From Octopus sinensis (lineage: Eukaryota), in the NCBI RefSeq assembly GCF_006345805.1, contig NC_043001.1, positions 108,500,001 to 108,564,000 of the forward strand: DNA of 64,000 bases. Reading direction: 5' to 3'. The notes under the pieces were generated by a model. It did no database searches. It was not told where the DNA came from and was given only the letters and a program-made list of their open reading frames with translations. The position numbers and the translations under genes were made by a program. Within the stretch, counting starts at the first letter, position 1; the number at the start of each line of letters is the position of its first letter. Shown piece after piece: positions 40,191 through 45,593 of this stretch.

Positions 40191-40302
40191 CTATAGTGAT
40201 GCTACCACCAGCATCACCACTATATTCATAACCATATGTTGTTATTTTATTAATTAAGTAAACTGAGTGCTATATTGTTTTTATGTTTTTATTTTATTTC
40301 AG

Positions 40303-41987
40303 ATCGAAAATGGATTAAATGTGATGATTTAGATGGTCCGATATGTTCGGTGAACCTTGGTCTACCTCTCATACCCAAGCAGGAAATCCATTTAGTAATG
40401 TGGGAAAAACTGAAGTCGGATTCTCTTGAGACCGTAGCAGATCCTAAAACGAATTCAGCGTCAGCATTGACCAATCCACAGATGTTACCGGTTGTTACAT
40501 CGGTCAGTGAAGCTCCTTCAGCTTCTGCTTTACCAGTTGTAACTATATCAGATGATTCTTGTTCATCACCTATACCGTCAACTTCATCTGTCACGTTGTC
40601 AACGACTGCGACGTCAATGACGAATAGTATTATATCATCGACTGTCGGAACGGTTTTCAGCAGAACTACGCCGTCAACTGGAGTTTCAGTTCTTGGTAAT
40701 ATAATGTCATCAATTGAAGCGCCAGTTTTTGGTGATGCCATGTCATCAACTGTTGTCCCAGTACTCAGTGGTACCATACCATCGGCTGTTGTTCCAGTTC
40801 TCAGTGGTACCATCCCTTCAGCTGTAATGCCGGTTCTTAGTGCTACTGTGCCATCAACTGTAGTTTCAGTTATTGGTAATACTGTGACATCAGCAGTCAC
40901 ACCAGCCCTCAATAGTACCGTTTCTCAACTGGTCAGTCCAGCTCTTTGTAGTACTATGTCGCAGCCAGTCATTTCTGCTCTGTGTAGTACAGTCTCACCA
41001 TTGGTCACAGCAGGTCTTTGTAATACTGTATCACCATTGGTCACCCCAGCTCTTTATAGTACTGTTTCACCATCGGTCACTCCTGCTATTTGCAGTACCG
41101 TCTCGTCACAAGTTGCACCGACTGTCAACACTACTGAATCGTCAGCAGCCCTCAGTACCGTTTCCCCAACTGTGGCCCCGGTCCACAATATTATGCTCTC
41201 GTCACTTGGGACTCCCATTTCCTGTGCTACGTTGTTATCAGTTGCAAATCCTGCCATTAATGGACCAATATCAATCTCAGTAACACCGACATCAACAACA
41301 CAACCACAACCGTCATCATCCGCTGATGATTCGTTTATTATTCCCATGTCTGTGTCACCAAGTGGATTAATTTCCTTATCAACCACTACGTCACCTTCTG
41401 AAGTTGTCTTCTCTTTGCCTGTTATGTCATCGACTCCGAACACTTTGCTTACACAATTGGTCAGTTCTGGGAAAGAGGAAAGCTCTTCTTCATTAACAAG
41501 TGCCTCACCAATTCTTAAGTCTGCACTTCTGAATAGTTCTCCATTATTAGCTTCAGAAACATTAGTTTCTGCTGCCGGAGACTCCATACCTCCACATAAT
41601 TCTGCTTCACTACCTACGCAAGTTCTTTCAAATTCCAGTGAAACCCAAAGTTGTCTAACCGGTTCTTTAACACCAGCCACTTCCAGTAACCAAGTAATTT
41701 ATCCAGTTCAGATTGAACCCCCACTTTCCATGAACACAGCATGCGTTGTCCAAAACACACCGGTTGTTGTCAGACCAGGTCAGTCGGGGGATTTAAACCA
41801 AGTTGTTATACCAAATTGTAGTCAAATTCCTTGTTCCCCTATGGAAGTGAAACAAATAAGTTTTCAACCTTTGCCTATTTCTAAAGGGAATACAAAAACT
41901 TTACCGATCAAACTTGAGAGTGATGCCAATCACTTAAATAAATTAAAAGCCAATTTGGCAATGGTCAAGAGATTCAGGAAGTGGTAG
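40303..41987 (+). CDS. USPL1: USPL1-like terminal coding exon (catalytic Asp plus long S/T/P/V-rich tail)
   Basis: Acceptor ttttatttcag, phase 1. DRKWIKCDDLDGPIC...IPKQEIHLVMWE matches the USPL1 WxxCDDLxGP...EIHxVxWE motif. Open to TAG at 41985-41987. Confidence 0.9.
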
Positions 41988-43286
41988 GGATATGGAATAT
42001 CAGTTTCCAATTTCCAGTTTGTTATTGATATTCCTCTGTAAATTTTGTGTATAAATTCTTATTTCCTAAGTTATTGTCAGAATTATCTACAGATTTTTTT
42101 TCTTTCTAAGGAGAGAATAAAAGACTTAAACTGCCATCTGTGATTGCAAAAACTGAAAAAAAGAATTAACCCCACAATATGTAATAAAGTTGTTATCATT
42201 ATTATGTTTTATTTTGTTTGTTATCAGAAAGGTAAGGTTTGAACTGGTTACAGGTAACCCTTTTTCAAGAACTGGGCTACATTAAGTATGACTAGTGATC
42301 AAGTGGGCCAGACTACTAAAAATATTCAAGATAATTTTTCATTTAGGCATGCTATTCAGAAGGTCCTGCAGGCTGCATCTTTTTTCCTTCAGCCCATCCA
42401 AGGTGCCTTGGATCACAAGACGGCTGCTGTGCTTACCTTGGATCATAGGGCGACCTGCTGTGCTTGAGGAGACCTATTGAGTCAAATGCATCAACATCAA
42501 AAAAATCAAATGGAAATTGTAGTTGTGATGCCTCTGCCGGTGGCATGTAAAAAGCACCATCCGAATGTGGCCGATGCTAGCGCCGCCTTGACTGGCTTCT
42601 GTGCCAGTGGCACGTAAAAAACACCAACCCATCGTGGCTGTTGCCAGCCTCCCCTGGTACCTGTGCCGGTGGCATGTAAAAAAACACCCACTACACTCAC
42701 GGATTGGTTGGCATTAGGAAGGGCATCCAGCTGTAGAAACACTGCCAGGTCAGACTGGAGCCTGGTGCAGCCTCCTGGCTTCCCAGATCCCAGTCAAACT
42801 GTCCAACCCATGCTAGCATGGAAAACGGATGTTAAACGATGATGATGATGATTGTTTGTTTGAGAATTCTTAAAGGCACTGATGATGGTGCTGCATAAAA
42901 AGCAACCAGTATACTCTGTAAAGGTTTGGCTTCAAGTCTTGCCAGCTCCTGTCTAACTGTCCAACTCATGCCAGCATGGAAAATGGATGTTAAATGATGA
43001 TGGTGAAGATGTTGAGCAGATCTGTGGTCAACGATCTGATTGGCACTTGTGCCAGTGAAACGTTATAAGCACATCCGTGCGTGGTTGTTGCTAGGGCCAC
43101 AGATTGGCTCCTGTGCCGGTGGCATGTAAAAGGCACCATTCGAGCGTGATCGTTGCCAGTGTTGCATGCCAGCACGTGAAAAACAACATTCGAACGTGGT
43201 CATCGCCAGTTTATAAATGGTGTTTAGAAGCCATTTAAAAACACACAAAAACCGTTAGATTCACTTCAACATCTAAATTTAATTTG

Positions 43287-43333
43287 TGTCAAAATATTTT
43301 CGTCGCTTTGAGATTGTGACCTGATCACTGACA
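43287..43333 (-). ncRNA. Hammerhead-like motif with G3-C8 swapped core
   Basis: Minus strand reads TGTCA-GTGATCA-G-GTCAC..GCGAC-GAAA-ATAT-TT-TGACA. A mirror copy lies on + at 43376-43424, with GAAA changed to AAAA. Confidence 0.55.
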
Positions 43334-43589
43334 AAATTCCATGCTGCAGCAAAATTCTGGATGCAGTGCGGAATTTTGTCAGTGAACAGGTTGCAGTCTC
43401 AAAGCGACAAAAATATTTTGGCAAATAAAATTTAAATGTCGAAGTGAATCTAACAGTTTTTGTGTTTCTTAAATGGCTTATTAACACCTTCCATGCTGCA
43501 ATTGTTTTTGTTTCAGCACACGATCCTTGATCAGGTCACTTGCTATGCAAGTACATCTCCATAATATATCTCTTTCTCTTTTTTCTCTT

Positions 43590-43985
43590 TTTACTTGTTT
43601 CAGTCATTTTGGCTGCGGCCATGCTGGAGCACCGCCTTTAATCGAGCAACTCGACCCCGGGACTTATTCTTTGTAAGCCCAGTACTCATTCTATCGGTCT
43701 CTTTTGCCGAACCGCTAAATGACGGAGACATAAACACACCAGCATCAGTTGTCAAGATGTTGCTGGGACAAACACAGACACACAAACATACACGCACATA
43801 CATATATATACATATATACGATGGGCTTCTTTCAGTTTCCATCTAACAAATCCACTCACAAGGCTTTGGTCCGCCCGAGGCTATACTAGAAGACACTTGC
43901 CCGAGGTGTCACGCAGTGGGACTGAACCTGGAACCATGTGGCTGGTAAACAAGCTACTTACCACACAGCCGCTCCTACGCCTATA
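43590..43985 (-). mobile_element. SINE family C with internal (TA)n/(TG)n microsatellite; copies at 11430-11700(-), 14035-14410(+), 16030-16210(-), 16604-17145(+), 19610-19920, 36670-37228(-), 44765-45165(-), 59352-59790(-), 61505-62193(+)
   Basis: Head GTGGTAAGTAGCTTG...GGTTCAGTCCCACTGCGTGGCACCTTGGGCAAGTGTCTT, a variable central microsatellite, and tail ...GGTGCTCCAGCATGGCCGCAGTCAAATGACTGAAACAAGTAAAAGAG. Confidence 0.85.
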
Positions 43986-45593
43986 TGTATATGATTTTAT
44001 AAAAAGCAGAGAGAATGAAAAAAAAACTTACATTTAATAAGAGAGAAACATTTGTTAGTGCAGCAGATATAAAAACAGTCCGAATAAGTTGCATAATCGA
44101 TATTTATTTATACTATAATTCCTGTACATATTGATTTTATTCTTTAAAATAAAGTTTATAAAACAACAACAACAACAAAAATGTAATTGGAAAAGCAAAT
44201 ATCAAATAACAAAATATGGAGAGAAAAACTGATATAGACCCAAATTGTGGAACCAGAATCAGAAAAATAGAAATAACAAAAAGCCATTTTTGTTTTTTTA
44301 TAATTATATATATACAGTGTTTATTTTGGTTGATGTGCGTACTGTTGAGCTCTTGATCAACTCTGAGCTTCTTTTAGAAGTATTTAGGATTATATTATCA
44401 GGGATTACATTGTCCAGTATCGCCTTCCCTTTTAAGTCAAAAGTGTGTAATTTGAAAGAAATATGGTTGTTATTTCTAGCATTTCAAGTGGCCATGTTAT
44501 AGTTCCCTTCTTTGCTTAGCAAAAGAACCACGGCTGTTATTGTTTAGCCCTACAACAACTTTGGTTGGGATAAAACTTTGATCAAAGGCAACCCAACCGT
44601 GACCATCCTGTCCCATCTTGTTTTAGGCATAATAGATCTTTGCCCACATTACTTTATATTCTCCTATTTAAAAATGTTAGGGTGTGATTTGAGGGAGATT
44701 TGACTGCTATTTCTAGATGATCTCTTGATAGTTCTGTGAGGGAAGGGTTGCTACTTTTTAATCTTTACTTGTTTCAGTCATTGAATTGTGGCCATGCTGG
44801 AGCACTACCTTGAAGGGTTTATTTGAACATATTGACTCCAGGAATCAACTTTTGAAAGTTTGCCTCTTATTCTATTAATCTTTTTTTTTTTTGCTAAACT
44901 GGTTGTGAAGCAATGGTGGGAGCCACACAACCACAAAGACACACACATATACCTATACACACACACTCAGACATGTATGCACACACACATGCACATACAT
45001 ACATACATATGCATATATGATGGGCTTCATCACATTTTCCATCAGCCAAATTCATTCATAAGGGGCTACAGTAGAAGACACTTGGCCCAGATGCCATGCT
45101 GTGGGACTGAACCCAAAACGTCATGGTTACAAAGTGGGCTTCTTAACCACACAGCTATGCCAGTGCCAAGAAAGAAAGAACAGTGTCTATAACAACATGA
45201 AAATATATAATTTCATTTCATCTAGTTTCATCTCACGAGCTGTGGCCATGCTGGGGCACCACCATTAAGGATTTAAATAAATAAATGCAAGGTATGATTG
45301 TCAAACAACCATAGCATAGGGATTTGGATTAGTGGTCCGCATTCTGACAAATGTATAAAAAGTATTTTACTGCGAGTGAGAGGTGCTAACTGACTCAACC
45401 ACAGAGAAAAGTCAGAACAAAGGCACAAGGAATGAAGTTTAAGAGAAACAGATCCACTTTGGAAATCGAAACTGTATTGCTTGCAAACGTTCAGTCTGGA
45501 AGAGAAATAAAGCGATCGCTCGACTTGTTATTCTTTGGTTTCTCAAAAAGGTGGAGCATCTCAGCTAATGAACCGCTTAACAGGTAATATTGT

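Follow-up and report, generated by a model that had tools for sequence, protein, structure and literature searches.

The tertiary base pair between positions 3 and 8 of the hammerhead core was itself proven through engineered swaps. Nature's known versions of this pair are C-G and U-A (PMC3088659; PMC4209133), and U3-A8 is the sole natural 3-8 covariant in the part of the survey by Cervera and de la Pena (2014; PMC4209133) available to us. The same survey describes minimal hammerheads in Penelope-like elements (PLEs), which cleave poorly. In a PLE hammerhead described in the available sections of PMC11167929, cleavage is lost with either C3G or G8C alone and comes back in part when the two are combined; the anole PLE ribozyme cuts only in the presence of protein, its mutants insert normally in vitro, and no RNA ends are reported at the cut site. 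An inverted copy of the element, together with a tail at one end, is a signature of PLE insertion (PMC8557442; PMC11167929).

We have analysed a window of 64,000 nt (the whole stretch of DNA under study) that contains a foldback with two hammerhead motifs on opposite strands. The foldback is a decayed, 5'-truncated PLE insertion made of one direct and one inverted copy of the terminal repeat. The core of its family is GUGAACA, with G3 and C8, not CUGANGA, and by comparison of sequences with its relatives G3-C8 is a natural compensatory change. The natural U3-A8 hammerheads are likewise compensatory at 3-8, but they retain a pyrimidine at 3 and a purine at 8, whereas G3-C8 reverses that order and needs two transversions (PMC3088659; PMC4209133). 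We put the probability that the motif works in this family as a slow ribozyme at roughly 70%.

Structure and Position of the Foldback

Features of the foldback and its surroundings are collected in Table 1. The first-pass annotation of this DNA had described a 270-bp foldback at 43219..43488 with near-perfect inverted arms. The arms are real, lying at 43219-43348 and 43362-43488, and the RNA folds at a computed -153.2 kcal/mol (z = -22.7), a value matched by none of 200 shuffles. The element is longer, however: comparison of genomic copies shows the long arm continuing for about 77 nt beyond 43488, up to a fixed end with (TA)n behind it, and the whole asymmetric element runs from 43219 to about 43565. 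The arms agree in 111 of 130 aligned columns (85%) and are therefore old rather than near-perfect. In window coordinates the usual short end of the family falls at 43504 and its tail end at 43565; the short window arm stops about 16 nt before that short end. Because 43473-43565 corresponds to the ORF start of a young element (L217), whose RT-GIY-YIG ORF opens in the same frame, the tail is coding sequence, like that of the anole PLE (PMC11167929).

Table 1. Coordinates of features in the window (., no strand)
Feature	Position	Strand	Remarks
Last coding exon, USPL1-like gene	40254..41987	+	Context, outside the element; Peptidase_C98
Short inverted arm, 5'-truncated pLTR copy	43219..43348	-	Begins just upstream of the hammerhead, ends 16 nt beyond the start codon (ATG 43234-43232); from comparison of copies
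Hammerhead, minus copy	43287..43333	-	Intact core; predicted to have lost its fold
Minus copy, stem I	43333-43329 with 43291-43287	-	
Minus copy, core G3-A9	43328-43322	-	N7 = U; G3 43328, C8 43323; extra G 43321
Minus copy, stem II	43320-43316 with 43306-43302	-	One A-C mismatch
Minus copy, GAAA	43301-43298	-	Stem III palindromic; U17 43292
Variable centre, junction of two 5'-truncated ends	43349..43361	.	Sequence varies among copies
Long direct arm	43362..43565	+	pLTR 3' part and first 93 nt of ORF (PLE 'tail'), then TA/TC run
Hammerhead, plus copy	43375..43425	+	G12 lost
Plus copy, core G3-A9	43382-43388	+	G3 43382; extra G 43389
Plus copy, stem II	43390-43394 with 43404-43408	+	U17 43418
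ORF-start remnant	43473..43565	+	ATG 43473; window copy has an in-frame stop at codon 4

Other high-copy short repeats flank the element (window 42500-43210, 43590-43990 and 44770-45160) and consist of 50-67 nt tandem-like units and SINE-like pieces with GAT-run ends; an abutting one may have clipped the left arm. The 5' truncations cluster ~10-25 nt upstream of stem I (window 43360-43375, L031-L060), after a long (TACA)n-rich 3' UTR, at a possible RT stall point.

All the hammerhead parts that had been read in the two arms were recovered at the positions first given for them, 43333-43287 for the minus copy and 43377-43423 for the plus copy. The minus copy keeps U4, G5, A6, A9, G12, A13, A14, A15.1-U16.1 and H17, whereas the plus copy fails at position 12 (43409), where G has mutated to A and the general base is lost. 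A strict G3-C8 descriptor run on both strands matched once in the window, at the minus copy, and never in 200 Markov-simulated windows. Predicted stem probabilities are near 0 for both copies, in the foldback as well as in each arm alone, and to judge from such folding, the lost G12 of the plus copy and the stem II mismatch of the minus copy, both motifs are probably dead. As they lie on opposite strands, one without G12 and both buried in a 270-nt duplex, the window copy is very likely inert, and the opposite orientation would leave the pair unable to dimerise and so not a functional duo. The window copy by itself is a fossil only. Rfam gave no match in the window at the gathering threshold, and an E-value scan of locus L004 returned 13 weak hits, all hairpin-type chance matches and none a hammerhead; the expectation that a swapped core, here GUGAACA, would escape CUGANGA-based searches is borne out.

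The upstream ORF matches Peptidase_C98 (USPL1 family) at E 6.7e-6; this exon holds no more than the final 43 residues of the domain, which keeps the score, 26.4 bits, slightly short of the 27-bit cut-off. The stop codon of the ORF is 1,232 nt before 43219. This agrees with the earlier placement of the foldback beyond a USPL1 stop codon, but its suggested location within the 3' UTR is not supported: contigs of the gene end at 42171-42204 in four of four runs (presumed to be RNA, the contigs beginning at the exon edge 40298), about 1 kb short of the element, a weak hint that it lies beyond the 3' UTR. Contigs of two runs cover the sequence from ~44085-44193 on, and a minus-strand AATAAA is present near 44105 (window 44085-44500); a convergent gene may end there, with the element between two 3' ends.

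A Family of Penelope-like Elements

A genome search gave 4,347 first-look candidates, of which 40 were scored. Many family copies are single arms. Where two divergent arms are paired, one is tailed and the other short in 31 of 34 cases, and the distance from core to core ranges across the family from 34 bp to 4.5 kb, the longest centres holding an RT ORF. (TA)n or AT-rich insertion sites were seen by eye at the 3' ends of copies. Autonomous copies were reached through pattern walks upstream, across the microsatellite-rich 3' UTR, and the repeat adjoins the ORF in all 13 ORF-bearing loci of the first family that were fetched (L207-L219; open frames up to 1,042 aa). One of these, L217, is a partial tandem in which a first repeat, with the young motif at 1058-1107, leads into the ATG of an ORF (~1,070 aa, interrupted by one frameshift), and the 3' UTR runs into the second repeat and (TA)n; its two repeats are about 99% alike over some 500 nt, their cores are 4,361 nt apart, and the predicted cut site lies 56 nt upstream of the AUG. 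The first-pass annotation had read the arms as an inverted pLTR pair from a Penelope family and had looked to genome-wide copies for adjoining PLE RT and GIY-YIG ORFs; walking upstream to young intact copies revealed just that arrangement. That the element is a PLE repeat we regard as virtually certain.

Among the best 150 candidates scored, a protein search placed the family at about 130 sites, 66-100% identical, and brought out a second family with 51% identity. GIY-YIG (PF01541) was recognized in C-terminal fragments, above the 22.6-bit cut-off in L165 (25.4 bits) and below it in L163 (22.5) and L162 (18.6). The long ORFs of L207 and L208 had no Pfam match, and RVT_1 appeared only below its cut-off, in two of five homologs; RT motifs were read in L208 and L217. 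In a structure search with the protein model of L208 (pLDDT 91), telomerase RTs rank 1-4 (E 3.8e-8 to 4.4e-6, TM 0.31-0.36). In two of the four runs presumed to be RNA, contigs cover 28 and 27 of the 30 bins of the young ORF; contig ends do not pile up over it, and contigs cannot show cleavage.

Five near-identical local duplications of 2.5-3.2 kb at C2:2.027-2.039 Mb (L098-L102, L121-L122) carry one truncated repeat copy each; this array is a local duplication and was rejected as a PLE tandem. A first GIY-YIG scan, in which 30 of 149 loci were examined, did not find the window repeat and found other PLE families with U3-A8. In these abundant GIY-YIG families of the genome the U3-A8 hammerhead lacks the extra nucleotide after A9 and sits 0.7-1.5 kb downstream of the endonuclease (L065, L068, L077, L080-L083, L086-L090).

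The G3-C8 Core and Its Covariation

Over 141 distinct arms, sampled with a bias towards best matches and with some segmental duplicates left in, G3 is found in 138, C8 in 121 and the G3-C8 pair in 119; young arms have both nucleotides in 18 of 18. U4, G5, A6, A9, A13, A14, A15.1-U16.1 and H17 are each kept in 133-141 of the 141, and G12 in 114, its 27 losses being mostly G-to-A at CpG and in some foldbacks affecting both arms. Stems I and II, G10.1-C11.1, the extra G after A9 and the palindromic stem III are all present in the family motif, and in the young repeat stems I and II form with a predicted probability of 0.94-1.0. Between the young and the old subfamily, loop 2 differs at four positions and by an indel, the core and stems at none, and the remainder at five by majority, so that the contrast outside loop 2 is small. 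The exact G3-C8 18-mer occurs 5,840 times genome-wide, its reversed control not at all. The swapped core, both stems and GAAA are thus the family state, as had been anticipated from the window copies.

Folding also predicts that G3 can pair with U17 and extend stem I, which could trap an inactive form; a related inactive-fold trap is discussed in PMC3884650, in the portion available. The computed two-strand hammerhead fold (-23.8 kcal/mol) lies above the arm-swapped MFE (-32.3 kcal/mol).

The sister family (L220-L226; motif at L224 7759-7810) has C3-G8 in seven of seven loci, with C9 or A9, and groups with the G3-C8 family at 97/100 in a midpoint-rooted tree of 17 rows confined to the loci analysed here; an Octopus vulgaris homolog matches it at 97%. 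Two older repeats (L227, L228), each with a homologous ORF start behind it, depart from the family 18-mer only in having C3 and G8. A motif was accepted downstream of the ORF in 8 of 40 metagenome relatives, five with C3-G8, three with U3-A8 and none with G3-C8; the other 32, many with little downstream DNA, yielded no accepted motif, the relaxed scan having left out 13. Non-paired hits in L170, L171, L173, L174, L179, L186 and L192 were judged to be chance. Of nine hits belonging to related families, six have U3-G8, one A3-G8 and only two C3-G8.

Position 3 pairs with position 8 in Watson-Crick fashion in all 14 aligned motifs (C-G 6, G-C 4, U-A 4), a hand-picked set in which the four G-C rows are one family of one origin. 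The covariation score of 0.88 compares with 0.22 for shuffled and 0.06-0.22 for slid alignments, and none of 500 shuffles reaches it. A representative search (1,416 hits) supplied extra rows for folding. Since C3-G8 occurs in the sister family and in most relatives, G3-C8 is most simply the derived state, and since relatives have C3-G8 or U3-A8 at this position, the earlier view of the swapped core as a natural one stands.

Other older related repeats (L230-L234, L236, L239) mostly carry the wobble U3-G8, not C3-G8. A change of A9 to C is seen both in the young sister family (L220-L226; L224:7768, with C3-G8) and in a metagenome relative (L167:2497, with U3-A8).

Comparison with Described Hammerheads and PLE Clades

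In the available portion of PMC4209133, the minimal type I hammerheads of PLEs resemble the present motif in their short stem I, a nucleotide between 9 and 10.1, G10.1-C11.1, GAAA, palindromic stem III and location in the pLTR, and the PLEs themselves in having many truncated copies, single or on opposite strands. They differ in core, GUGAACA here against their CUGANGA, in the extra nucleotide, G here against their consensus H, and in the 3-8 covariant, which is U3-A8 there and G3-C8 in this family. With the Anolis carolinensis Poseidon element PAc, as far as PMC11167929 describes it in the sections available, the family shares a hammerhead near the ORF start, two RT starts within the ORF that give the tail, extension of both strands and AT-rich end sites. 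PAc is naturally C3-G8 and is cut 26 nt after the start codon rather than 56 nt before it; the tail of ~60 nt is longer than the 30-40 nt described for PLEs, PAc included.

Comparisons with PLE clades draw on the part of PMC8557442 at hand, including its printed alignment. The C-terminal GIY-YIG with CCHH and short CX3CxxC linker resemble those of Nematis, as does, by eye, the stretch before the linker; the Nematis linker pattern CX2-5CxxC and the endonuclease CCHH are present in L208, L217 and the protein alignment. Unlike Nematis, the family has DKS in place of DKG, and GGAIG in motif B in place of GxxMG. Motifs A and B are 131 residues apart in L208 and 127-134 in the 60 of 80 homologs in which both motifs were found, against about 60-65 in the printed Penelope and Nematis rows. 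The ~70 extra residues fall at the position of the telomerase insertion-in-fingers (L208:1962-4478; homologs P0001-P0080), an insertion that the Nematis, Neptune, Penelope-Poseidon and Hydra clades lack between A and B (PMC8557442). The Hydra clade (DKT, no CCHH, CxCX5C) was ruled out by DKS, CCHH and CX3CxxC, and the Naiad/Chlamys clade (N-terminal endonuclease, no canonical hammerhead) by the C-terminal endonuclease. Judged by motifs and printed rows, the PLE appears to fit no named clade, and a literature search for a C-terminal GIY-YIG clade with such an RT insertion found nothing further; it may represent a clade that has yet to be described and is widespread among marine invertebrates.

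In the literature searched, G3-C8 was found in engineered hammerheads and not in natural ones, and priority is not certain; the portions available of a bioRxiv retrozyme preprint, PMC6765202, PMC6155905, PMC3884650 and an octopus repeat paper (PMC13282606) contain no natural example. Taken as a whole, the proposition that this PLE fixed the first natural G3-C8 hammerhead, active but slow and sparing the template, in an undescribed clade combining GIY-YIG with a telomerase-like fingers insertion of ~70 residues, is a tentative one, on the evidence of sequence rather doubtful than probable.

With at least 5,840 copies, the G-C version would add the reversed pair to those in nature, and the same genome also holds sister families that have C3-G8. 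Descriptors built on CUGANGA or UUGANAA, and also Rfam, miss whole families, and PLE lineages reported to be hammerhead-less merit a rescan.

A Slow Ribozyme or Another Structure

A foldback of this form could be taken for a MITE whose terminal inverted repeats resemble hammerheads by chance, and both the number of first-look candidates and the many long-armed foldback copies some 270-350 bp in length are what such an element would show. The arms have two different end points, however, with no symmetric TIRs and no fixed ends or length; the centres range in length between 34 bp and 4.5 kb, the longest enclosing the RT ORF, many copies are single-armed, and the arm corresponds to the repeat of an element with an RT-GIY-YIG ORF, so that a MITE is ruled out for practical purposes. 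Scarcely more credible is a co-opted role for the foldback in the USPL1 3' UTR, whether regulatory hairpin or ribozyme, for which its position 1.2 kb past the stop codon, the long arm on the strand of the gene and the very stable predicted duplex might speak: the sense copy lacks G12, the arms have decayed to 85% identity like those of other old copies, the duplex sequesters both motifs, and the ends of the gene contigs hint weakly in the same direction.

More weight attaches to the possibility that the motif of this same PLE does not cleave, being either a relic or a structure that binds protein or positions the RT, an ancestral hammerhead having drifted by way of G3-G8 to G3-C8 without selection on catalysis while some other function preserved the stems. 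Exact G3-G8 copies number 205 genome-wide against the 5,840 with G3-C8, and G3-G8 appears in 10 of the 141 sampled arms; it is about five times as frequent as C3-C8, the comparable transversion at position 3 (extrapolated from 15 cases among the first 100 of 239 listed). It is spread over several loop-2 backgrounds, and among 11 foldbacks with G3-G8 and both arms read, it occupies both arms in four and one arm in seven; a group on contig C20 shares G3-G8 along with other diagnostic changes. Because G3-G8 is over-represented, occurs on several backgrounds and is found in both arms of 4 of 11 foldbacks, templates with an unpaired 3-8 seem to be copied. The C9 of the sister family, the frequent U3-G8 of older relatives, the dispensability of cleavage for the anole PLE in vitro (PMC11167929) and the fact that genomic copies run across the cut site point the same way. 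Drift, on the other hand, would improbably have made two transversions that exactly restore a tertiary pair; young copies keep U4, G5, A6, A9, G12, A13, A14, A15.1, U16.1, U17 and the palindrome while loop 2 changes; and three types of Watson-Crick pair occupy 3-8 across the clade. We judge loss of cleavage to be an unlikely reading, though one to be taken seriously, and prefer a slow but working ribozyme.

On that preferred reading, the motif is likely to be a minimal type I hammerhead with G3-C8 that is putatively self-cleaving as a dimer in young full-length elements. A transcript of the upstream repeat would read through the ORF and 3' UTR into the second repeat, where two motifs of the same sense could pair through the palindromic stem III and cut slowly after U17, releasing from the tandem transcript a unit RNA of about 4.4 kb. 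By analogy with the anole PLE (PMC11167929, as far as available), the protein would nick both strands of AT-rich DNA, and the RT-endonuclease would copy mostly uncut RNA from starts 32 and 93 nt into the ORF, the two start points giving one short and one tailed arm. Both copies would stop just past the hammerhead and be joined head to head, leaving a small foldback. Genomic copies span the cut site, and the templates must therefore be uncut or rejoined RNA; a slower G3-C8 core would therefore be tolerable. Natural G3-C8, G3-G8 and C3-G8 motifs in matched backgrounds provide a ready test of whether PLEs need ribozyme cutting.

Copies with G3-G8 often carry it in one arm only (L240-L266, L147, L148, L153, L160, L161). 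In L160 further diagnostic sites distinguish the two arms, a hint that each insertion may draw on two RNA templates.
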